From: Isurus oxyrinchus
Lineage: Eukaryota
NCBI GenBank assembly: GCA_026770705.1
Contig: JANJGN010000012.1
Location: 128,712,001-128,776,000, forward strand
DNA length: 64,000 nucleotides
Direction of reading: 5' to 3'
In this document: one piece after another, positions 1 to 59,342 of the stretch
Numbering within the stretch: the stretch's first letter is position 1
How the letters are laid out: every line of letters starts with the position of its first letter
The notes under the pieces: model-generated
What the model saw: the letters and a program-made list of their open reading frames with translations, nothing else
Databases searched by the model: none
Told to the model about the DNA's origin: nothing
Program-made: the position numbers and the translations under genes

Positions 1-735
1 ATTTTGCAGCGAGTAACTCACCTCCTGACTCCCCAAAACCTTTCTATAATCTACAAAATACAAGTCAGGAGTGTGATTCAATACTCTCCATTTCCCATGG
101 ATGAGTGCAGCTCCAACAACGCTCAAGAAGCTTGACACCATCTAGAACAAAGCCACTGCTTGATTGGTATCCCATCCACTACCTTAAACTTTTACTCCCT
201 CCACTACTGACGCACAGTGGCAACAGTGTGTACCACCTACATGATGCACTGCAGCAACTCACCAAGGCTCCTTCGAAGTATTTGGATGTGCACTTGCGAT
301 GCCATGGCATACAAGGCCTAGTGCAGGGAAATGGGATTAGAATAGTTAGGTACTTGTTCGACCGGCACAGACTCGATGGGCTGAAGAGCCTTTTTCTGTG
401 CTGTTGACCTCTATGACTCTATGACAGCACCTTCCAAACCCGTGACCTCTACCACCTAGAAGGACAAGGGCAGCAGATACATGGGAACACTATCACCTGT
501 AAATTCCCCTCCAACCCACACACCATCCTAACTTGGAACAATAGCACCATTTCTTCACTGTTGCTAGGTCAAAATCCTGAAAGTCCCTTCCTAACAGCAC
601 TGTGAGTGTACCTACACCACATGGACTGCAGTGGTTCAAGAAGACAGCTCACCACCACCTTATCAAGGGCAATTAGGGATGGGCACCAAATGCTGGCCTA
701 GCCAGCAACATTCACATCTCAGTTAAGGATTAAAA
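1..735 (+). mobile_element. 3' part of CR1/L2-group LINE ('family B'), interrupted by a nested CR1 tail
   Basis: Collinear with 43165-43735 (ctcacctcctgactccccaaaacct ... aagggcaattagggatgggc ... aaatgctggcctagccagc); decayed C-terminal ORF2 remnant. Confidence 0.85.
275..424 (+). mobile_element. HER1-type CR1 LINE 3' tail nested in family-B LINE
   Basis: Contains gactcgatgggctgaagagcctttttctgtgctg and ends ctctatgactctatga; splits the host motif aaggctccttcga|cagcaccttccaaacc (uninterrupted at about 43410). Confidence 0.8.
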
Positions 736-17122: not shown

Positions 17123-17236
17123 CAAGAGGCAAAATGATTGGCAAGTAATAAACTTTACCCATGTAATAATGGTCCTTTTACATGAAGGATGCTTTCATTT
17201 GTAATGAGGTGGAACCCTATCTGGAATATCCTAATG

Positions 17237-17818
17237 TTCCAGTGAAGCTCAATGCAAACTGGAGGAACAGCACCCCATCTTCCGACTAGGCACTTTACAG
17301 CCTTCCGGACTGAATATTGAGTTCAACAACTTTAGATCATGAACTCTCTCCTCCTTCCCCACCCCCTTTCCGATCCTCCTTTTTCCAAGAATTTGTATAG
17401 ATTTTTCTTTTCCCACATATTTCCATTATTTTTAAATGTATTTCCATCCATTGTTTTAACTCTACCTTTTAGCTTATTTCGATTCCCCCCCACCTCACCC
17501 GCTCTAGGGCTATTTGTACCTCGCTCGTCTTGCTTTCCATCCTAAATGTCCCATTAGCATATTTCTTAGCTAATATCACCACCATCAACACCTCTTTGTC
17601 CTTTTGTCTGTGACATCTTTTGGCAATCTCCACCTATCACTGGCCCTCTGTCCAGCTCTACCTGTCCCATCCCCCCCTTAAACCAGCTTATATTTCACCT
17701 CTTTTCTATTTTTCCTTAGTTCTGATTAAGAGTCATTCGGACTCGAAACATTAATTATATTCCTCTCCGCGGATGCTGTCAGACCTGCTGAGTTTTTCCA
17801 GGTATTTTTGTTTTTGTT
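17237..17818 (+). mobile_element. Penelope-like element 3' end (GIY-YIG C-terminus plus pLTR)
   Basis: Translates KLEEQHPIFRLGTLQPSGLNIEFNNFRS*; flanked by 15/16 direct repeat ctggaata(t/a)cctaatg (17221-17236, 17819-17834); decayed hammerhead motif at about 17718-17756. Confidence 0.85.
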
Positions 17819-20479
17819 CTGGAATAACCTAATGCCTCAGGTAAGAAATGTAAAACAGGACACTGATTGGCTATCACCAATTATTATCTTCTATGAGTCT
17901 GCTTAGCATTCTCCCAGTATTATGGCTGGGACTGGAAACTCAATGGTGCAGAACACTGAACTTCTCTGCCGATGTCTCCCTGGCACAGCTTGTTGTCCCA
18001 GTATGATGCGCCTCCTTTTCCTTTTTTGATTTTTTTTTGCTTTAAATCAGAAGGTGAGGGCTTTATTAGGGATGCTCACTCCCAGGGTTACCAAGTCCAA
18101 CATTCTATTTGGGCTGAACTACAATCAACAGAAATACAGTGATTATCTTAAAGATGCTTCATCTTCAGCTGAGTGCGTTCATTCAATTCCCGACATTCTC
18201 GATGACTCTTCAAATCTAGCATGCCATGATCATTTTACTCATAGCCAATGATTCAATAACAAAAAGGATGCTGCCCTGAGTAATGATTGTCGCTTCAAAA
18301 ATTCACCAAAATCTTAAGTTAGTTATACCAATAAATAAAAACAACCAATCAGAAGCTTGTAGCCATGATTGGCAGGAATCGATACCATTGAGCAGTAACT
18401 GCAAATATTTCTTAAAGATTTTAACGTTCGGAACTCGGATTGTTGGTCCAGTTGTTTAAACATTGAGTAATAATGTCCTGATCATAATATTTGGAAGATT
18501 TAGCAAGTTGGGGGGATGCATGGGGAGCGGTTCGTTTCATAAGAACACAACTGGAGATGAAGCAGCAGTGGCTGAACAAGTTGTTTATTTTGATATTAGT
18601 CTAACTTCTTCCTTGATTATAAGCTCTTTATGAGTTAGAATATTTACTAATGGACGGAAATACGTATGATATTATTCACTGCTGGAAGTGATATTAAAAT
18701 GGGATCTCTTAAGTTGACAAGAATGGCTGCACTTCCCCCAGTGTGAATTTTTTATTCTAGACAATCATCAAGCTATTTTCCTGGGAACCAACACATCACC
18801 GCCAATTGCAAAGGGAAGGGAAAGCACACACCAGCTTAAAAACAGTTAACCAATTCCAAATGATATAAGATGCTCAGGAAAGGCACAATTGCAAAAACAA
18901 AATGGGGTATGCTATTCAAGCAGCTGAGGGACACTGTTGTGGTGCTATTCTACTGAAGGAAAGTCTAACTTGGCCTGAGGAACAGATTAAAATCTTCCAA
19001 GCTGTGCCTGGAGTCAAAACGTCTACCCCAGAGTCCCAGGTGTCTGGTAAGTTGATATTACAGTCTCTTCTTTCATTCAATTTTCCAGTACAATAAAAGT
19101 AGTTGGAAAAAACACTCCACATAAATATAATATATGCAGATTGCCAAAACTGATCTTTAAAGCCTCAACTAAATGTGCTTAATAATCGTGTACACAAAGG
19201 TCCATATTTGCAATGTGCTTACTTCTGCACATTTCTTTCAACATGGCATCTGTGACTGTCTGCCTCCAGTTGTACAGTGCATAGGTAATGTGCACATTGT
19301 TGATTCCATCTCCCAAGCCAAGTCACCTTTCCACTCGGTTCCATCAATTTCAGAGGCCAGTACTATTCTGGAATTAAAGTCAACTTGGCAGGAGTCATTG
19401 GCTGAGCCAGAGATCTCTACTAAGTGTAATTTCCCTAAGGGAAGAAGGTGGAGAGTGTTAAGCACGAGGGCGGATTCAAGGTCAGAAGTGATGATCCACT
19501 AACAGCCTATCTTAAGTGTTTCTTGCCATGCGCATCAGAGAAACACTAAGTACTCAGCACACCATTCCTGGCTTTTCTTTGTTCTTTCATGCAATGTGGG
19601 AGTATTGCCCATCCTTAATTGCCCTTGGGAAAGGGGTTTGGGCCACCTTCTTGAAGCACTGTAATCGATGTAGTGTAGGTACACCCGCAGGTTTTCAATG
19701 GTTGCTATGGGTTATGAGGGTAGAGGGAGGGGCAATTTTTAAAATTCAGCTAGTACTACTGGCCATAAAATGGTACTGCAGGGACTGCATCCATTTGTCC
19801 CTCCAATATCTGAGGGGATGACCCAAAGGCATCAGAACACCATTACATCCTGCCAAAGTTGTTTAGATTATTAAATGACACTGGCTCTGGGAAATTAAGC
19901 AAGATCAGGAGTGTGGGCATGAGATGGAATGAAGTCCAGCTACATCAACATTACAACCGACTAGAAGTTCTGCCCCTGTCCCATTATCTGGCAAGAATGC
20001 TGTCCTTTTAATGTTGGTAGCAGGGTTTAAGTTCAACACTTGCTAGCAGATTGAAAATCTTGCCTTTCAAAGAGCTCTTAGGTCCTAACTGAAGTGAACT
20101 TAAGTAGTCAAATCCTACTTGCTAATGATCTTGACTACACGTTATATTGGCACTAAAGAGTATCAAATAACATCTTACCCGAGAGTTAAAGGATGCCTTT
20201 TGTAAGAAGAAAGACGTGTCTTTCACATCCTCAGGATGTTTGAAAGTATGTTGTAATGAAGGGTATAAGAGCAGCTATTTGCACATACTAGGGACCCACA
20301 AATACTAATCAGATAAATGACCAGATCATCTGTCTTAGTGATAGCCAGGTAAATATCAGCCCAAAACTTCAGAAGAACTCCCTTGGTCTACTTTGGATAG
20401 TGCCATGTGATCATTTATGCTCATTCGAGAGGACAGACAGAGAAAGAAAGAAATAGGTGCAGCTATCGATCGGAACCTC

Positions 20480-28199: not shown

Positions 28200-29975
28200 A
28201 AATCCCAAGATATTCAATAAGTATATCAATGGGAAAAGGATAACCAGGGAAAGAGTAGAACCCATTAGGGATCAAGGGGGCAATCTATGGGTGGAGCCAG
28301 AGGACATCGGTAGAGTGTTGAACGAATACTTCACATCCATCTTCATCCAAAAGAATGAGGATGAAGATATTGAACTTGGGAGAGAGACTGTGAGGTTCTT
28401 GAGCAAATTGATATAGGGAGTGACAAGGTATTGGAGGTGTTGGCAGGCTTAAAAGTGGACAAATCTCCAGGTCCAGATAATTTATGTCCCAGACTGCTGT
28501 GGGATGCAAGGGAGGATGTCGCAGGGGCTCTGACCCAAATTTTTAATTCCTCTCTGGCCACGGGGAAGGTGCCAGAGGACTGGAGAACAGTTAATGTGGT
28601 TCTGCTATTTAAGAAGGGTTGTAGAGAGAAGCCAGGGAACTACAGGCCAGAGAGTCTCATGTCAGTGGTAGGGAAACTATTGGAGAAAATTCTGAAGGAG
28701 AGAATCTGTCTCCACTTGGAGAGGCGAGGTTTGATCAGGGATAGTCAGCATAGCTTTGTCATGGGGAGGTCATGCCTAACAAATTTGACTGAATTTTTTG
28801 AGAAGGTGACCAAGTGTGTAGATAAGGGTAGTGCAGTTGATGTAGTTTATATGGACTTCAGCAAAGCCTTTGACAAGGACCCACATGGGAGACTTATGAA
28901 GAAGGCAAATGTACAATTGTATACAGGTCATTTGATGAGATGGATTCAAATTTGGCTTAGTTGCAGGAGACAGAAGGTGATGACAAAAGGATTGCTTTAA
29001 TGACTGGAAGTCAGTGTCCACTGGCATACCACAGGGATCTGTGCTGGGTCCCCTATTATTCATCATTCATATAAATGACATAGATGACTATCTGGGGGGT
29101 AGGATTGGTAAGTTTGCGGATGGTAGCTAACAGTGAGGTTGAGTGTCTTGGGCTACAGAAAGATATAGACGGGATGGTCAAATGGACAGATAAGTGGGAG
29201 ATGGAATTTAACCCTGAAAAGTGTGGGGTGATACACTTTGGAAGGAGTCATTTGACAAGGAAGTATTCAATGAATGGCATGGCACTAGGAAGTTCTGAGG
29301 AAAAAAGGGACCTTGGCATGTGTGTCCATAGATCTCTGAAGGCGGAGGGGCATGTTAGTGGGTTGGTGAAAAAGGCATATGGGACACTTGCCTTTATCAA
29401 TCGAGGCATAGATTACAAAAGTAGGGAGGTCATGTTGGAGTTGTTTCGAACCTTGGTGAGGCCACAGCTGGAGTACTACGTGCAGTTCTGGTCACCACAT
29501 TATAGGATGGATGTGATTGCACTGGAGGGGGTGCAGGGGAGATTCACCAGGATGTTGCCAGGGATGAAACCTTAAAGTTCTGAAGAGAGGTTGGATAGAC
29601 TTGGGTTGTTTTCGTTGGAGCAGAGAAGACTGAGGGGCAACCTGATCAAGGTGTACAAGATTATGAGGGGCATGGTGGATAGGGAGCAGCTATTTCCCTT
29701 AGTTGAAGGGTCAGTCATGAGGGTACATAAGTTTAAGGTGAGGGGCAGGAGGTTTGGGGGGATGTAAGGGTGGTGACAGTCTGGAATGCGCTGCCTGGGA
29801 GGGTGGTGGAGGCGGGTTGCCTCACATCCTTTAAAACATACCTGGATGAGCACTTGGCACGTCATAACATTCAAGGCTATGGGCCAAGTGCTGGTAAATG
29901 GGTCAGATGTTTCTCACATGTCGGTGCAGACTCGATGGGCCGAAGGGTCTCTTCTGCACTCTGTGATTCTGTGAT
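28200..29975 (+). mobile_element. 5'-truncated HER1-type CR1 LINE, ORF2/RT pseudogene
   Basis: KSPGPD, PGNYRP, VDVVYMDFSKAFDK, GIPQGSVLGP, RPQLEYYVQFWSPHY motifs with frameshifts; tail ctgtgattctgtgatt. Confidence 0.95.
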
Positions 29976-31030: not shown

Positions 31031-31712
31031 GGGAGGATTTTCCCCTCGTCAGATAGGCAAGCCCAGGAGGGGCCACGCAAAGGTCTGTCACCCGTGATTG
31101 GACCCCGACTGCGATTTCACACAGGTTGGCCAATTAATGGCCAGCCAACGTGAAAAGTGCGCTGATATCCTCAGCGTTGCTGGGGTGGGGGTGGGAGGAG
31201 GGCAAGCCCTGAAGTGTGCGCATGTGCGAGGGTGCACTCAGTGAAAGCTCCCTGAAGGCACAGAGCTGCCTCAGAAAGCTGAAGATTTTTAACATGAGAA
31301 ATAAAGATTTTAAAAGTAGGGAAACCATGTCCCCACACGTGACTCCGTCACATGAACAAGGACATCTGAAATATGAGTTTTAAAATTTATTTTTTTTTAG
31401 TCACTGTTCGAAATCTTGTCCCACCTGTGGATGAGGTTTCGCAAAAAATGTAAAGGCCGTCTGGCCTATTCGCCTAGCTGCCAACCGTAAGGCTGGAAGG
31501 GCAGCGAAAAATTCAATTTAATTAATTGATTAAGGTGCTTAACAGCCCTCTTAATTGTCGGCGAGCACGCTGCTGAGTCTTACACGCGGCCGCCGACCGA
31601 AATATCGCGCGAGTGCGCGATGATGTCGTGACACTCATCTGACATCATCGCGCACTATTTCACACTCATGCGCGCCAGGCGCAGGCCTGCATGCAGAGCT
31701 GAAAATCTGCCC
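31031..31712. mobile_element. CpG-rich non-autonomous TIR element (Harbinger-like MITE)
   Basis: TIRs gggaggattttc / gaaaatctgccc, preceded by TAA; sharp GC/CpG contrast with the flanks. Confidence 0.65.
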
Positions 31713-32056
31713 GTATTGTTCTTGAATTTCCAGTTGAATTGTGCAAGTGCAAATTTGTACAAAGAAGCACCTTAGGTACAGTGAAATAAATAAAGATCAT
31801 TTTAAATTAATGTTACTTCTTCAGCATCAAACGTCCATGGGTTTTCTAATGTCATTAGGTTCAAGGTTTTGGTACCGCTGCTACTCACTTAGAGAAAATC
31901 TCTTTTAAAAATTGCCTAGCCTGAATGTTAATGTCTATTTTGCTTTCATTTTTTAAAAACATGCTGATAATATCTTTGCTTGAATAGCTTATTCTCTATT
32001 CCTTATTATACATTAGTAGAAAGAGGCAGCAACATTAACAGGAATATATATTTCGT

Positions 32057-32294
32057 AACAAAAACAGAATTACCTGGAAAAACTCAGCAGGTCTGGCAGC
32101 ATCGATGGAGAAGAAAAGAGTTGACGTTTCGAGTCCTCATGACCTTTCGACAGAACTCCGTTCTGTCGAAAGGTCATGAGGACTCGAAACGTCAACTCTT
32201 TTCTTCTCCATCGATGCTGCCAGACCTGCTGAGTTTTTCTAGGTAATTCTGTTTTTGTTTTGGATTTCCAGCATCCGCAGTTTTTTGTTTTTAT
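32057..32294. mobile_element. Fold-back Penelope pLTR mini-element
   Basis: Inverted arms 32057-32156 and 32160-32259 (99/100 match, 3-nt loop), 35-nt T-rich tail, 14-bp TSD atatatatttcgta (32044-32057, 32295-32308). Confidence 0.9.
32160..32196 (+). ncRNA. Minimal type-I hammerhead ribozyme motif (variant core), mirrored on minus strand at 32120-32156
   Basis: gtt-CTGTCGA-a-aggtc-atgag-gactc-GAAAC-GTC-aac: stem I gtt/aac, stem II, GAAA, GUC site; the core has U at position 6. Confidence 0.6.
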
Positions 32295-32699
32295 ATATAT
32301 ATTTCGTACTCTGCACTGATACACAATCCAAATGTATAAGCAATGATAGGGCATTACACACCTTACTTTACACTGAAATTCAATCCCAGAATTAGCTGGA
32401 GAGAGACACTCCTTATTCTGTATTGGTACAAGTCCCAGATTTATGACGTGCGTAATATGCTACTTATTATAATCCGATTTTTCAGGAGTGCAACTCCTTT
32501 TTATTCCAGATCAGTATCCTCAGGGTTATCAGGAATGTAACATACTCCCTACTCTGTACGGAGTATGGAAAAATTATTTCTCATGTTCACTCTTGATATA
32601 GCCGAGAATATTTTTACAAGCCAAGTAATCCTTGTGCAGAAGCAAGGAAATTCTGCTAAACAGTCATAAATCATTGGTTAGGCCTCAGCCTAGTGAAGG

Positions 32700-36310: not shown

Positions 36311-38221
36311 CTTTCATAGTCATTGTGTACTATTCACAAAGCGTCACTAGATTGAAGCTGAAGGAAAGTATTCAGAGCCTTGGATATAGGAAAATTGCAG
36401 GTAGCTCTGGATGAATGGAATGTCTTTCTTAGAAGTTTTAATATTCAATTTGGCCAATATAAATGGCAGCATATGTCAGGAAACCTTCAGCAAAAGCTTA
36501 ATGAAACAATAGAACTGCTTCAAATGGCAGTTGCTGCAGATCACACTGGTGTATGGTGAAGGTGATGCAGTTAAACATCCACAAGCAACTATAGTGACTA
36601 TATTACTAAGGTTGGATCCTTCGTGGAAGTATTGTAATCTAAAACGCAACAAAGATAAGGCTACACTAAGGATGTAAAAAATTCCATTCATAGACACCTC
36701 ATTACCTGAGCCAAATAAAGTTTGTTCAGTTTGGGAGATGCAATGTTCATGATTTATTTGGGTTTGTCCCTTATCTCATTGAATTTTTTTTACTGAAGCT
36801 CAGTAATCTATATTAGCCACTGAGAAACATAACACTTGAAGACATATTGGTTACACATTCACTACCCCGACCAAGCAATTGAACTAGTCAAGTTGCAAAG
36901 GATGTTAACACAATTTCAGATATATAAGGCATCAGCCAGAAAAGCAGCTGTAGCTGACTGATGCCTTAAACAGGGCTTATTTACTCTATTGTTGCAAGAA
37001 TGAGCTATAGGAATGGTCAAAGACAATTTATTTGACAGAAGACCTATATGTATGCAAGGTCTTAGTCTATGAGCCAATGAATCAAAGCATAAAAACGTCC
37101 AGATTTTAAACAGCCTGATCTTGAATGAGAGCGAGAAAGAGGCTCAAAATCCAGTTCTATCATCCTTTATTTGCCAACTTGAACTCAGTTCCCACAATAA
37201 TATCCTATTTAAAGGAGAACAAGCAATCATCCCAAAGGTACTGGGGAAAGACATGATGCCATGTTCCTATCCATTCTCTGTTGGAGTAGAAAGTACCTTG
37301 AGAAGGGAACGCAAACGTCTCTCTACAGGCCACAGGTAGATACAGAACTGCAATATTATATTGAGTATTGTAACATTTACAAACAGTAGGAGATTCAAAA
37401 AGTGATGCTGATATATCACAAAGTATTTGATCACCCCTGGGCAAAAGATGGCATTGATTTTTTTCTTTTGGTTTGTTTATGCTGTATGGTAATGACTGAT
37501 CACTATCAGTCACCATTCATAGAACCATGGGGCTGAATTTGCCCACTCGCCAACGCACAAAATGACACGGGATGATGTCAGGTGGGGCGTTGGGGGTGGG
37601 GGGGGGGTAAGTATCAGATCACTCGATCTTGGATGAAAGTGACTGCTGGTTATGCAGGGAGCCCACATGAAATAATTATTCAGCATCTTCTTTATGAAAA
37701 TCAGGATATTAACGTTGAGTATAGGAGCCTGGTGCAAAGATTAGTTATTGAATGGTGGAGTTTGTGCTGAGCATGGTGCACCATTTTGTTCCAGCTATTC
37801 AGTAACCTAACCAGTGATCCTTAAAGCAACCATTGAAGTCCGTCCCCAAGAAAGGTAATAAAGTTTTATTTTAATCATTTCATTTCTGCACTCATTCTGG
37901 AGTGTACTGCACCACACTGCTTGTCCAAGCTTGACAAGCCCTCCACTCCACTTTGTCTAGCAATGCATCCACTCAACACCCAAGACACACCAACAGGAAG
38001 GCCCAATGTCAGAGCTGGCTGAAATTCTTAAGTCCCTGATTAGAAAGCTGGCCAAGTGGCACCCACAGCTTGCTGGTTTGGTTCAAGTGAGGCCCCAATG
38101 TCATATTTGGCTCTGGCCTCTGACTAACATCTTTGGAGATGAATTTGAATTTTGCTGCCTATTTTATGCCACATGTTGAATTTCTCCCCAAGTTTGTTTT
38201 TAACCTTCCTTTTTCTGATTA

Positions 38222-39149
38222 ATGATGAAAAGAGGAACATTCTTTTGTCAAAGCTTTTTGTCTTGTACTCATCAGGACAATTCACAAGAATACTAAATGT
38301 AAAGGGAACAATTTGTACTGTATCAGAAGAGAGTGCTGATTGGGTGGCAAGTGGACTCCAGTTGGTAGAGGTATTGCCATGGAGAATGTGCCTATTGATG
38401 GTGTCTGACAGTTAACTGTCAAGCATTGTTTGATATTTAAACCAGACAGCGTGACTCTGATTGGCCAAGGCATTACCCTGAGGCACTTATTTTGTTTCGC
38501 TGAAACAGGCACAGTGTACATGTTCTTACTGTCTGCAGAGAATGGGGCCCTATGTATTACTACATGTAGCTTTCAGTACACACAAATGCCCAACACTGCA
38601 AGCCCAACTGACAATCTTAAATATGTTTTCAGCATAATTCTTAGCACATTGAGGGTTATTTAGTAAATGTTGTCCAATTGCAGAATCACACCTAATGTTG
38701 GACGCTGTGTTTTGAGTTTTGCAAGCATGGGCTGATTGGCTATGGTCTGTTCCTTTCCTGTTATGAACAGTGGAAGGGACACAATAACAAAAAGAACATG
38801 TAGACACTTTATGCCTGTTTCAGCTAAACAAAATAAGTGACTGCCTCACTTCACTGCTTCATTCCTCAGGGCAGTGCCTTACCAATCAGAGTCAAGCAGC
38901 CTGGTTTAAATTTCAAATCATGCTAGGCAGTTAACTGACATTCACCACCAATAGATGCATTCTCCATGACAACGCCTCTACCAATCAGAGTCCACTTGCC
39001 AACCAATCAGCACTCGCTTCTGATATAGTATAAATTGTTGCTTATATTGGTATTCTTGCAGTGTCTTGATGAATGCAAGATGAAATGCTTTGACAAAAAA
39101 GCTTCCTTTCTTCAGCAATACACAAGTTCTGTACTACCAAATGACTATG
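38222..39149. mobile_element. Penelope-like element, second family: inverted pLTRs around a GIY-YIG C-terminal remnant
   Basis: Arms about 38225-38530 and 38790-39115 are reverse complements; minus ORF CDSAIGQHLLNNPQCAKNY..FKIVS; hammerhead motifs at 38245-38280 (-) and 39062-39096 (+); possible TSD ttctgatta. Confidence 0.8.
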
Positions 39150-40747: not shown

Positions 40748-43737
40748 TAGTGGACTAGTAATTCAGAGTCCCAGGGTAATGCTCTGGGGACAGGGGTTCA
40801 AATCCTGTCATGGCAAATGGTGAAATTGGAATTCAATAAAAATCTGGAATTAAAAGTCTAATGATGACCATGAAACCATTGTCGATTGTTCTATATAAAA
40901 ACCTGTCTGGTTCACTAATGCCCTTCAGGAAAGAAAATCTGTTGTCCTTACCTACCTGGTCTGACTTACATGTGCTCCCCACAGCAATGTGGTTGACTCT
41001 TAAATGCCCTCTGAAATCATCTAGCAAGCAACTCAGTTGTACCAAACTGCTTCAAAGTCTCAAAAAAGGAATGAAACTGGACAGATGACCCAGCACCGGA
41101 AACGACAACAGCAAACTCAGCTCTGTTGATCCTGCAAAGTCCTCCTTACTAACATCTGGGGGCTGGTGCTAAAACTGGGAGAGCTGTCTCACAGACTCGT
41201 CAAGCAAAGCCTGACATAGTCATCCTCACGGAATCATACCTTACAGATAATGTCCCAGACACCACCATCACCGTCCCTGTCCCACCAGCAGGACAGACCC
41301 AGCAGAGGTGGAGGCACAGTGGTACACAGTCAGGAGGGAGTTGTCCTGAGAGTCCACCACATTGACTCTGGACCCCATGATGTCTCATGGCATCAGGTCA
41401 AACATGGGCAAGGAAACCTCCGGCTTATTACCATGTACTGCTCTCCCACAGCTGATGAATCCGTGCTCCTCCATGTTGAACACCGCTTGGAGGAAGTACT
41501 GAGGGCGGCAAGGACGCAGAATGTACTCTGGTGGGGGACTTCCATGTATATCACCAAGAGTGGCTCGGTAGCACCACTACTTGCTGAGTCCAAAAGGACA
41601 TAGCTGCTAGACTGGGTCTGCGGCAGGTGGTGAGGGAACCAACAAGTGGGAAAAACAACTCAAGACTGGGCACCCATGAGGCTTTGTGGGCCATTAGCGG
41701 CAGCAGAATTGTGCTCGAAAACAATCTCGCCTGGCATATCTCTCCCATCACCATCAAGCCAGAGAATCAACCCTGGTTCAATGAAGAGTGCAGGAGGGTA
41801 TGGAAGGCGCAACACCAGGCATGACTAAAAATGAGGCGTAAACCTGTTGAAGCTACAAAATAGGACCACTTGCATGCCAAACAGCATAAGCAGCAAGTGA
41901 CAGAGCTAAGCAATCCCACAACCAATGGATCAGATCTAAACTCTGCAGTCCTGCCACATCCAGTCGTGAATGGTGATGGACAATTAAACAACTCACTGCA
42001 GGAGGAGGCTCTACAAATATCCCCATCCTCAATGATGGGGAACTCAGCACATCAGTGCAAGAGATAAGGCTGAAGCATTTGCCACAATCTTCAGTCAGAA
42101 GTACCTCATGGATGGTCCATCTCAGCCTCCATCAGAGGTCCCCAGCATCATAGGTGCCAGTCTCCAGCCAATTCCAGCCATGTGATATCAAGAAATGGCT
42201 GAAGGCACTGGATACTGCAAAGGCTATGGGCCCTGACAATATTCTGGCAATGGACTGAAGACTTCTGCTCCAGAACTTGCTGGACCCCTAGCCAAGCTGT
42301 TCCAGTACAGCTGTAACATTGGCATCTACCCGGTAATATGGAAAGTTATGTCCTGTACACAAAAAGCAGGGCAAATCCAACCCGGCCAGTTACCACCCCA
42401 TCAGTCTACTCTCCATCATCAGTAAATAATGGAAGGGGTCATCAACAGAGCTATCAAGCAGGACTTGCTTAGCAATAACCTGCTCACTGACACTACATTC
42501 GGGTGCCGCCAGGGCCACTCAGCTCCTGACCTCATAGCAGCCTTGGTTCAAACATGGATGAAAGAGCTGAACTCCCGAGCTGAGGTGAGATTGACTGCCC
42601 TTGACATCAAGGCCGAGTGTGGCATCAAGGAGCCCTAGCAAAACTGGAGTCAATGGGAATCAGGGGGAAATTTCTCCACTGATTGAGTCATACCTAGCAC
42701 AAAGGAATATGGTTGTGGTTGTTGGAGGTCAATCATCTCAGCTCCAGGACATCACTGCAGGAGTTCCTCAGGGTAGTGAGCTCAGCCCAGCCAACTTCAG
42801 TTGCTTCAATGACCTTCCTTCCATCATAAGGTCAAAAAGGGGAATGTTCGTTGATGATTGCACAATGGTCAGCACCATTCGTGACTCCTCAGATACTGAA
42901 GCAGTCCATGTCCAAATGCAGCAAGACCTGGACAGTATCCAGGCTTGGGCTGACAAGTAGCAAGTAGCATTCACACCACACAAGTGCCAGATAATGACCA
43001 TCTCCAAAAGGGGTAATCTAACTATTGCCCCTTGACATTCATTTGCATTACCATAACTGAATCCCCCACTATCAACATCCAGGGGGCTACCATTGACCAG
43101 AACGTGAACTGGACTAACCATATAAATACAAGACCAGGTCAAGAGGCTATGGATCCTGTGATGGGTAACTCACCTCCTGACTCCCCAAAACCTGTCCACG
43201 ATCTACAAGGAACAAATTAGGAGTGTGATGGAATACTCCCCACTTGTCTGGAAGAGTGCAGCTCCCACAACTCTCAAGGAGCTTGACACCATCCAGGTCA
43301 AAGCAGCCCACTTGATTGGCACCCCAAGCACAAACATTCACTCCCTCCACCACCGATGCACAGTAGCAGCAGTGTGTACCATCTACAAGATGCACTGCAG
43401 GAATTCTCTAAGGCTCCTTCGACAATACGTTCCAAACCCACAACCACTACCATCTAGAAGGACAAGAGCAGCAGACAGATGGAACACCACCACCTGCAAG
43501 TTCCTCACCAAGTCACTCACCATCCTGACTTGGAAATATATCGCCGTTCCTTCAGTGTCGCTGGGGCAAAATCCTGGAACCCCCTTCTTGACAGCACTGT
43601 GGGTGTCCCTACACCACATGGACTGCAGCAGTTCACAAAGGCAGCTCATCACCATCTTCTCAAGGGCAACTAGGGATGGGCAATAAATGCTGGTCCAGCC
43701 AGCAAAGCCCACATCCCGTGAATGAATAAAAAATAAA
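40748..43737 (+). mobile_element. Near-full-length CR1/L2-group LINE (family B): tRNA-like head, APE endonuclease and RT pseudogene
   Basis: B box ggttcaaatcc at 40795-40805; NIWGL, PDIVILTESYL, GGGTVV (APE); KAMGPD, ALDIKA, GVPQGS, FVDD (RT); tail cacatcccgtgaatgaataaaa. Many stops, frameshifts and internal deletions. Confidence 0.9.
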
Positions 43738-50312: not shown

Positions 50313-51327
50313 AAGATAAAAGCGAAATACTGTGGATGCTGGAAAGCTAGTCCACTGGACCAGAGTGGACCCTGGTCCACTCCTCCATCACCCCCAATGC
50401 CTCAACCCTCTCCCACGGCACCTTCCCATGCAATTGCAGAAGGTGCAACACCTGCCCCTTTACTTCCCCCCTCCTCACTGTCCAAGGGCCCAAACACACC
50501 TTTCAAGTGAAGCAGCGCATCACTTGCGCTTCCCTCAATTTAGTCTACTGCTGCTCCCAATGCGGTTTCCTCTACATTAGAGAGACCAAACGCAGACTGG
50601 GTGGCCACTTTGCGGAACACCTTCGATCTGTCCGCAAGCATGACGCATGCCTTCCTTGCCATTTCAACACACCACCCTGCTCTCATGCCCACAACGCAGG
50701 CCTGCCGCATTGTTCCAGTGAAGATCAACGCAAACTGGAGGAACAGCACCTCATCTTCCGATTAGGCATTTTACAGCCTTCCGGACTTAACATTGAGTTC
50801 AACAGTTTCAGATCATGAACTCTCTCCTCCATCCTCATCCCTTATTGATCCCTTTTTTTCAAATATTTATTTTTAAATTTTTATATATATTTTTTCCCAC
50901 CTATTTCTATTATTATTATTTTTAAAATTTATTTCCATTCATTGTTTTATCCCCACCTTTTAGCCTATTTTGATCCTTTCGCCCACACCGTCCCCTGCCC
51001 CCACCCCACCCCCAGTAGGGCCATCTGTCATTTGTTCATCCTGCTTTCTACTCTTAATGTCACCATTAGCACCTCCTTTAGCCAGTATCACCACCATCAA
51101 CACCACTTCGACCTTTTGTTTATGACATTTTTTGTAATCTCCCCTTTGCCTCCACCTATCACTGGCCCTCTATCCAGCTCCACCTGTTCCACCCCCCTTA
51201 AACAGTATATATTTCACCACATTTTTACTGCTCTTTAGTTCTGAAGAAGACTCATACGGATTCGAAACGTTAAGTCTTTTTATCTCCACAGATGCTGCAA
51301 GACCTGCTGAGTTTTTCCAGCAATTTT
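50313..51327 (+). mobile_element. 5'-truncated Penelope-like element with GIY-YIG endonuclease remnant
   Basis: ORF 50507-50818 NLVYC..CSQCGFLYIRETKRRL..HFAEH...RKLEEQHLIFRLG; inverted pLTR tip at the 5' end; 14-bp TSD tatttcattgcctt (50299-50312, 51328-51341). Confidence 0.9.
51237..51276 (+). ncRNA. Minimal hammerhead ribozyme motif in PLE pLTR (canonical core)
   Basis: agtt-CTGAAGA-agactcatacggattc-GAAAC-GTT-aagt, palindromic AACGTT stem III; stems partly mutated. Confidence 0.55.
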
Positions 51328-57399: not shown

Positions 57400-57752
57400 T
57401 AGTCATTTGAAAGTACAGAACTTGAATAGAGCTAAACATTTTGTCGAAGATTTTTGTCTTGCACTCATCAGGGCAATCGCAAGAATACCAATGTCAGTGG
57501 AAGCAACAACATTATACGGTATGAGAAGAGAGTACTGATTGGTTGGCAAGCGGACTCTGATTGGTAGAGGCATTGCCATACAGATGTCTCCAGGTCAACA
57601 CCTCCACCAATCAGCGTCCATCTGTCAACCATTCAGCACTCTCTTCTCATATCGTATAAAGTTGTTGCTTCCACTAACATCGGTATTCTAGCGATTGTCC
57701 TGATGAATGCAAGGTGAAAAGCTTTGACAAAATGTATTTTTTCAGCATTATG
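57400..57752. mobile_element. Fold-back PLE pLTR mini-element, second family
   Basis: About 142-bp inverted arms 57436-57577 and 57593-57735; hammerhead motif in each arm; tctgact repeated at both junctions. Confidence 0.85.
57695..57730 (+). ncRNA. Minimal hammerhead ribozyme motif (mirror copy on minus strand at 57441-57476)
   Basis: ttgtc-CTGATGA-atgcaaggt-GAAA-agct-tt-gacaa; consensus of four arms ttgtc CTGATGA gtgcaagac GAAA agct TC gacaa. Confidence 0.6.
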
Positions 57753-58294: not shown

Positions 58295-59342
58295 TTAAAA
58301 AAAATTCATTTATGGGATATAGGCTTCTCTGGCCAGGCCAGCATTTATTGCCCATCACATAAACAGAATTACTTGGAAAAACTCAGCAGGTCTGGCAGCA
58401 TCAACTAGTTCTGTTGAAGGGTCATGAGGACTCAAAACGTCAACTCTTTTCTTCTCCGCCGATGCAGCCAGACCTGCTAAGTTTTTCCAGGTAATTCTGT
58501 TTTTGTTTTGGATTTCCAGCATCCGCAGTTTTTTTGTTTTTATCTTTATTGCCCATCCCGAGTTGTCCTTGAGAAGGTGGTGGTGAGCTGCCTTCTTGAA
58601 CAGCTGCAGTCCATGTGGTGTAGGTACACCCATAGTGCTGTTAGGAAGTGAGTTCCAGGATTTTCACCCAGCGACAGTGAAGGAAAGGCATTATATTTCA
58701 AAGTCAGGATGGTGAGTGACTTGGAGGGGACCTTTCAGGTGGTGATGTTCCCATCTATCTGCTGCCCTTCTAAATGGTAGTGGTCTGTCCTGCTGGTGGA
58801 ACAGGATACACAGGGATGATGATGGTGGTGTGTAAAGTATTATTCGTTGAGTATGACTATGTCAGACCATTGTTTGACCAGTCTGTGAAACAGCTCTCCC
58901 GGCCTTGTCACAAGGAGGATTTTGCAGAGTTGATAGGGTGGAAAGTGCAATTATCATTTCCGTACCAAGGTTAAAACCAGGTGGTCTGTCCAATTTCATT
59001 CCTTTTTGGCAGTTTGATACAAGTGAGTGGCTTCCAGGTCATTTCAGAGGTTCTGGAGTAACGTGTAGACCAGATGAAGTAAGGACAGCAGATTTCCTTC
59101 CCGAAAGTGAATTAATGAACCACAGATGGGTTTTTACAACAATGGTTTCATGGTCACTATTACCAAGACTGGCTGGCTTTGTGATTCAGATTTTTTAAAA
59201 AATATATTAATTGCATTTAAATTCTATCAGCTGCTGTGGTAGGATTTGAACTTATGCCCCCCCCAGAACATTAGTTCTAGCCCTAGCCCAAGCCTCTGGG
59301 TTACTAGTCCAGTGACATTATCACTACACCAACACTTCCCCC
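58295..59342 (-). mobile_element. Family-B element: tRNA-like head, partial APE and 3' tail (internally deleted or composite)
   Basis: A box tggtgtagtgat (59331-59320), B box gttcaaatcct (59251-59241); APE remnant near 58780-58900 abuts the LINE tail at about 58775. Confidence 0.75.
58357..58544. mobile_element. Fold-back PLE mini-element (32057 family), left arm shortened
   Basis: Same sequence as 32057-32294; 13-bp TSD tttattgcccatc (58344-58356, 58545-58557). Confidence 0.9.

Follow-up and report, generated by a model that had tools for sequence, protein, structure and literature searches.

The window, a stretch of 64,000 nucleotides from contig JANJGN010000012.1 of the Isurus oxyrinchus assembly GCA_026770705.1, carries at 32044..32308 a small fold-back insertion (Table 1). 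Inverted- and direct-repeat analysis confirms the layout first proposed for it, namely two 100-bp arms that are complementary at 99 of 100 positions, a 3-nt loop between them with the sequence TCC, a T-rich tail on one side and an exact 14-bp target site duplication (TSD). The single mismatch lies at arm position 81. The insert measures 237 nt between the TSDs and not 238 nt as originally predicted, since base 32057 is counted both in the TSD and in the arm. As had also been claimed, the fold point lies immediately 5' of stem I of a hammerhead motif. All element coordinates given below take window base 32160 as +1. An RNA of the hairpin is predicted to fold with -196.5 kcal/mol (z -28.5), a value that was equalled by none of 200 shuffled sequences. 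Going by this predicted fold, a transcript of the hairpin could be a Dicer or ADAR substrate, as originally proposed; a look-up of RNA data sets for the locus listed none.

Table 1. Features of the fold-back insertion at 32044..32308
Feature	Position	Strand	Basis or remark
Left TSD, 14 bp, last base common with the arm	32044..32057	+	the commonest TSD length, seen in 16 of 46 fold-backs
Tail-less inverted arm, element positions 1-100	32057..32156	-	putative cDNA from the top-strand nick, begun at the inner of two start sites
Hammerhead-like motif of minimal type I (stem I of 5 bp, core with U6, 10.1 is A)	32118..32158	-	read from sequence against the minimal hammerhead description in the excerpted text of PMC4209133
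TCC junction, made of one templated T (A at -1 of the element) and two C without a template	32157..32159	+	loop parse
Forward arm, element positions 1-100	32160..32259	+	inverted-repeat and family matches
Hammerhead-like motif of minimal type I with a stem I of 3 bp (core 32163-32169 with U6 being base 32166; 10.1 is A, base 32171; GAAA 32186-32189; predicted cut after 32193)	32160..32196	+	read from sequence
PLE 'tail', 35 nt, one side only; its end would be the outer RT start site	32260..32294	+	excerpts of PMC11167929; 43 of 46 tailed arms end at 129-133
Right TSD, 14 bp	32295..32308	+	exact direct repeat

Both junctions of the insertion recur in a related organism (organism B), in which single-copy contigs from three runs of three different studies lead from the unique flank into the left arm, up to 32081, and, starting within the tail at 32275, out into the flank on the right. 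Organism B is about 1.2% divergent from the window (12 of 1,004 letters, run X5), and the presence of both junctions there establishes that they are real and older than the split of the two species. The original prediction had named an assembly artefact as a way in which it could fail; this concern is removed for the junctions, while the centre of the palindrome is crossed by no organism B contig in the three runs compared. An artefact or a chance palindrome could appeal to this gap in the centre, yet in view of the exact TSD, the junctions in organism B, the one mismatch between the arms and thousands of like loci with TSDs of their own, such an explanation is scarcely credible. The organism B runs also contain, in three out of three, about 122 extra letters at 32559-32561 of the window.

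The arms correspond to the 3' end, or pLTR, of a Penelope-like element (PLE) of about 3.3 kb whose ORF encodes a reverse transcriptase (RT) and a GIY-YIG endonuclease, and the predicted PLE origin of the insertion is thereby borne out. Its mobilisation by the PLE RT/GIY-YIG protein and the presence of an inverted pLTR, both part of the same prediction, are likewise supported. The forward arm with its tail finds many matches across the 5.0-Gb genome, and exact matches to a 34-mer that spans the border between arm end and tail number 52,270 in the genome as compared to none for the control, so that the family comprises at least 52,270 copies. At the 30 best loci the unit forms the 3' end of a longer repeat with varied 5' cut points, often with a tail-less inverted copy upstream. 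One long copy (locus L123) contains a tandem pLTR followed by an open frame of 925 codons, which matches RVT_1 at E 1.3e-5 and GIY-YIG at E 8.8e-4, neither of them reaching the Pfam cut-offs, and whose translation includes DKG and CCHH-type motifs. The tandem is partial, in that the upstream copy comprises -705..135; from its end to the downstream unit the distance is 3,188 nt. The parent thus combines a single ORF for RT and C-terminal GIY-YIG with a partial-tandem pLTR ahead of it, which is the arrangement of endonuclease-bearing (EN+) PLEs, and the insertion at 32044..32308 has the inverted 5'-truncated copy, the one-sided tail and the TSD of EN+ PLE insertions. Most aligned copies carry a CX4CxxC linker (CPRKRCNTC or close) ahead of the nuclease, with P in place of one C at L123. 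According to excerpts of PMC8557442, a CX2-5CxxC linker between RT and endonuclease marks the Neptune/Nematis type and is absent from Penelope/Poseidon; on account of this linker we assign the parent to the Neptune/Nematis type, and a 'Poseidon-type' label was dropped because of the linker zinc finger. Two further features of the long copy at L123 are an ATG in hammerhead loop II, which starts a frame of 18 codons ahead of the main ORF (3860-3803, minus strand), and a donor-like CAG/GTAAT at element positions 81-88.

That two ribozymes lie back to back at the fold point, as the original prediction held, is true of the motifs, which occupy opposite strands and would both be buried by the hairpin; it does not hold for a canonical ribozyme core. 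Read from the sequence, the motifs display the topology of a minimal type I hammerhead, with helix I, the core, an extra base, helix II, GAAA, the palindromic 15.2/16.2 and NUH. What they lack is a CUGANGA core with A6, which is missing family-wide, and, in the window copy, the G10.1-C11.1 pair. Both window motifs have the core CUG-U-CGA, in which U replaces the conserved A6, and at 10.1 both have A instead of G, so that helix II loses its first pair, whereas the majority of the family has G at this position. U6 is found in all of 41 long copies, and genome-wide the matches to the U6 form number 90,569 against 158 for A6. A search of the whole window against Rfam at E<=1 returned three weak matches and no hammerhead, and a single hammerhead folds no better than its shuffles (z about 0.6-0.7), the free fold alone not adopting the motif. 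In one hammerhead, A6C lowered the rate in Mg2+ from 0.3 to 3.55e-6 per minute while activity in Mn2+ was spared; the variant covered in the excerpts of that work is A6C and not A6U (PMC7151607). The literature searched yielded no report of an A6U hammerhead. Judged by these substitutions, the ribozymes are likely to be crippled by U6 throughout the family and additionally by G10.1>A in the window copy, in which ribozyme activity is improbable.

Genome-wide, 5,199 loci contain fold-backs that turn at +1, at the 5' edge of the hammerhead, as compared to control fold points with 69 loci at about -35, 178 at the predicted ribozyme cut and 298 at +54; these ratios are approximate, as the four search patterns, though of like design, differ in length and degeneracy. 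The turning points cluster between -5 and +1, with an edge that is sharp upstream and trails downstream. A sample drawn blind to the 5' end, which consisted of the first 100 matches to the 34-mer on contig 1 (the first 5.8 Mb) and required the exact tail 34-mer, gave a similar picture. Forward arms ended in -7..+5 in 27 copies, in +6..+85 in 24, in -16..-8 in four and in -40..-17 in one, and the 44 remaining ones ended further upstream, seven of them censored. An adjacent inverted arm was present in 54 of the 93 uncensored copies and ended at 96-108 in 44 of these 54; short fold-backs made up 34 of the 100 sampled copies, and fold points in the sample also scatter as far as -2 kb. Moreover, loose ends in short-read contigs of organisms A and B peak at -1, at 100-103 and at the tail end. 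Upstream of the hot spot, 40 of 41 long copies have a TATATTT box 30, 31 or 33 nt before +1, the spacer differing among subfamilies. This box is shared by a sister family with A6, in which 130 fold-backs turn at the identical position. The window itself holds two older PLE ends of this sister family, at 17235-17823 and 50711-51320, with the A6 cores CUGAUUA (decayed) and CUGAAGA, respectively, the latter with the same TATA-like box upstream.

Two sources of the hot spot other than an RNA start were rejected. A splice acceptor at +1 is incompatible with junctions that are colinear to -4..-6 and adjoin no constant foreign exon. The ribozyme cut was rejected for the U6 family, as ends are in no excess there (178 loci, and both ends at the cut in four of the 50 listed). 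In the A6 sister family, 27 loci lie near the predicted cut against 130 at +1, eight of the 27 having both ends at the cut, so that the near-cut share is higher than in the U6 family (178 against 5,199), a comparison confounded by a GTTAAC palindrome at the site in the sister family and by differing coverage of the patterns. This larger share is possibly a trace of cleavage in vivo.

Does the hairpin, then, replicate as a unit? The original prediction took it for a self-contained, non-autonomous element that is transcribed and retrotransposed as such, and suggested a histogram of fold points, in which a fixed fold point with common loops would speak for this. We find a strongly preferred fold point without common loops, a combination that speaks for a template RNA with a fixed end. 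The comparison took in the window copy together with 45 further loci from the 5,199 of the +1 hot spot. These 46 fold-backs have 26 different loops, and their outer ends vary, tail-less arms ending at 95-109 in 29 and tailed arms at 129-133 in 43 of the 46. The TSD is 12-15 bp long in 32 fold-backs and lacking in eight. Some loops do recur (TA seven times, A seven times and TTCAA five times among the 46), as would be expected of a replicating unit, and short fold-backs account for about a third of the sampled copies; the recurring loops, however, are all fully templated by upstream sequence. A haplotype marked by G21A occurs with five loops and differing arm ends. The TCC junction of the window copy is found at two loci only, the other one differing in haplotype and carrying the tail on the opposite side, which leaves the window junction without a sister copy. 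Thus, the common junction, common ends and private variants of a non-autonomous unit of the MITE, SINE or retrozyme kind are lacking, fold points scatter widely, and propagation of the hairpin as a unit is very improbable. As these comparisons cover 46 of 5,199 loci, they are compatible with a rare replicating sub-lineage. The stub in the window has neither the TATA box nor the sequence past the tail and is therefore likely a dead end. That it is a by-product of a single insertion event, of a class already known, is by contrast highly probable when the three routes by which this could come about are taken together.

Among these routes, we favour as the probable one that the insertion arose once, at this site, from a single RNA which was primed at two internal positions by both nicks, the two cDNAs running off what is likely the 5' end of the RNA and being joined head to head. 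The endonuclease would nick both target strands 14 nt apart, and two RT protomers would begin synthesis, one at each end of the tail, within the first, 5'-proximal pLTR of the transcript. The TATA-like box 30-33 nt upstream would set the start of this transcript at the 5' edge of the hammerhead. On run-off the RT may add an occasional C or CC, and end joining would then link the two cDNA ends. TCC at the window locus would be the trace of this step, the 3' ends of both cDNAs having met where the RNA has its 5' end. Starts in the downstream pLTR would instead give rise to long, randomly truncated copies. Run-off at a capped start is likely. For a Poseidon PLE, in vitro work has shown extension of both strands, begun at two internal sites on either side of the tail, and normal insertion by ribozyme mutants (excerpts of PMC11167929). 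This biochemistry comes from a Poseidon element, while the present parent has the Neptune/Nematis linker. Against a start set by a TATA box, the mapped Penelope promoter of Drosophila virilis has no TATA box, and its start lies 46 nt ahead of an intron, as given in part of PMC2377424.

Of the two arms, one has its outer end near position 100 and the other near 133; they derive from one source and turn within a common zone. When 46 pairs with a standard outer end are classed by length, 31 are short/short, 12 long/long and only three mixed, where 19 mixed pairs would be expected (p 3e-8). This makes the end a property of the template and not a random stall. It bears on a variant of twin priming in which the hot spot reflects an arrest of the RT where the hammerhead is folded or bound by protein, or else an RNA end left by processing, in place of the transcription start. 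The hot spot does coincide with the 5' strand of stem I, and in D. virilis an intron ends at helix I (excerpted text of PMC4209133). Independent stalling, however, predicts the 19 mixed pairs and not three, the pile-up is sharp upstream and trails downstream, splicing is at odds with the colinear junctions and missing foreign exon, and processing by the ribozyme with the missing peak at the predicted cut. We consider a stop or processed end of this sort quite improbable.

Further support for twin priming on one template comes from variants and tails. Non-CpG variants common to both arms number 17 as compared to 1.2 in 5,000 shuffles, a test that used 39 of the 46 pairs after seven had been dropped for gaps or short arms. 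Against a single source for both arms stand 46 non-CpG variants confined to one arm, which we read as later mutations, and the recurrent marker G21A, which is discordant between the arms at one of five loci. No signature of strand-biased deamination or A-to-I editing was found in the arms (12 G>A and nine C>T among non-CpG one-arm changes; four shared A>G). Moreover, 43 of the 46 hot-spot loci combine an arm with a tail and one without, three have no tail and none has two.

All of this would also follow if, at each site, one cDNA begun at the tail end folded back at the RNA end and copied itself to about 100, the endonuclease resolving the product and central deletions making the arms unequal, as such self-priming predicts common variants, matched length classes and no tail/tail pairs alike. 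Many loops lie on short palindromes, in 22 of the 46 pairs the arms end within 10 nt of each other, and self-priming and endonuclease resolution have been proposed for the junction palindromes and for the tail in parts of PMC3846280 and PMC8557442, respectively. However, in 16 of the 46 it is the tail-less arm that extends further 5', by more than 10 nt and up to 1.3 kb, as against eight in which the tailed arm does. This inequality could in turn reflect later central deletions of a self-primed palindrome. The loops at L153 and L158 have C beside the left arm and G beside the right arm, which indicates two cDNA 3' ends, and the two tail-bounding start sites of the in vitro system (PMC11167929, in part) likewise argue against a self-primed origin, which we regard as unlikely.

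Untemplated bases are present in 16 of 46 loops. In six loops, that of the window copy included, CC or GG can be placed as a C tail of the cDNA, and two of them show this at both arms. At the sister loci, a hand count finds CC directly after an arm ending at +1 in seven of the 50 listed, and GG in one. Then again, C-tailing concerns a minority, as TCC accounts for nine of the 100 listed T-C junctions and most junctions are blunt or have microhomology. At L036, L160 and other loci of both families the loops repeat element positions 5-11, as if the cDNA, having run off the RNA end, had been primed anew on that template a few bases downstream. In contigs that may stem from RNA runs (X22 and X24, from one organism B sample), pLTR positions of about -5..135 of L123 are covered far more deeply than the sequence upstream; the RNA status of these contigs is guessed, many enter flanks and the start cannot be read from them, and their coverage is not counted as evidence.

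Twin priming as such is familiar from L1, where another cDNA is started on the same RNA from the second nick and an inversion results, the two cDNAs covering different parts of the RNA. In the present family, by contrast, the cDNAs would overlap almost fully, with two fixed starts and one preferred end. As far as excerpts of PMC3846280 and PMC8557442 go, the inverted copy, one-sided tail, TSD and junction palindromes were already described for EN+ PLEs. Adineta vaga Pen2a and others likewise have an inverted 5'-truncated copy beside a direct copy; a one-sided tail of 30-40 bp (35 nt here), the TSD and the palindromic junction are shared as well, as are TATA- and Inr-like motifs in the pLTR (PMC3846280, in part). 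Different from these, the window insertion consists of only 100 + 135 nt without an ORF, the turning-point hot spot is quantified here, and the TSD mode is 14 bp instead of 8-10 (excerpts of PMC3846280 and PMC8557442). With PAc, a Poseidon of Anolis carolinensis, the present family has in common an AT-rich target and, on the favoured reading, two tail-bounding RT start sites and cutting and extension of both target strands, and for PAc insertion hammerhead catalysis is dispensable (excerpted text of PMC11167929). According to the same excerpts, however, PAc belongs to the Penelope/Poseidon clade, whereas our parent has the CX2-5CxxC linker of Neptune/Nematis; the PAc ORF begins in stem II, whereas the first ATG of the long frame here lies beyond the tail; and the PAc ribozyme cleaves with the help of protein, whereas the present family has U6.

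The motifs resemble the minimal hammerheads of metazoan PLEs in their short helix I, the extra base between 9 and 10.1, the location in the pLTR and the lack of a helix III beyond the palindromic ACGU, and opposite-strand pairs of minimal hammerheads 100-700 bp apart have been described (PMC4209133, in part). U6 is not among the variants in the excerpts of that paper, though, and the G10.1-C11.1 pair is lost in the window copy; moreover, the window motifs lie on opposite strands and hence form no tandem dimer within one RNA, unlike the motifs of PMC4209133 in the same excerpts. Non-LTR retrozymes are similarly non-coding, hammerhead-bearing and derived from a PLE pLTR, but are head-to-tail tandems with intact motifs, while the window pair is head-to-head with a U6 core (10.64898/2026.07.22.740005, in part). 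An identity with these retrozymes was ruled out on this ground and as there is no sign of unit replication. Within the literature covered, with subscription papers, Repbase and supplements outside it, we found no description of the fold-point hot spot or of a U6 PLE family. Taken together, the layout is known, and the readout of the start site and the U6 core are modest news.

The locus itself is ordinary, being one of more than 5,000 like stubs. What the family as a whole may mean we put forward tentatively, doubting it slightly more than we trust it: about half of the insertions would copy just the first 100-135 nt of one capped RNA, a dimeric RT priming at both nicks from two fixed sites and running off, and a family of about 10^5 arms would have spread with a U6 hammerhead either because catalysis is dispensable or because the A6U core works with protein or Mn2+, seeding thousands of dsRNA hairpins on the way. 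If so, the hairpins, thousands of them across the genome, hold a record both of where a Neptune-type PLE starts transcription and of its insertion geometry in vivo, U6 at about 10^5 arms amounts to a natural test of the need for a ribozyme in PLE spread, and thousands of near-perfect 100-bp dsRNA hairpins across the genome are a side effect. This bears on the origin of inverted copies and tails of PLEs and on the role of the hammerhead, subjects treated in the excerpts of PMC3846280, PMC8557442 and PMC11167929. Counts in the thousands make twin priming, the start site and the dispensability of the ribozyme testable, with the A6 sister family as a control in the same genome.

As to its surroundings, the insertion had been placed in an intron of a candidate minus-strand gene. 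A Pfam search of 150 of the 182 stop-to-stop frames of at least 70 aa in the window found no host gene, the only matches being two RT fragments and two zinc-ribbon matches under threshold. The RT fragments belong to other retroelements and lie at 28374-28997 (RVT_1, E 1.7e-11) and 42595-42957 (E 1.1e-5). A second fold-back of the same family sits inside another repeat at 58344-58558 and has a different turning point; it is made up of an inverted arm of positions 54-99 (58357-58402) and a forward arm with tail (58408-58543), flanked by repeats of about 13 bp. Close to it, a 300-bp self-complementary stretch (57436-57735, 82%) is MITE-like and has related pieces at 38220-39147. Finally, a perfect 16-bp inverted repeat with a 13-nt loop is located at 31612-31656, in a GC-rich multi-copy segment.
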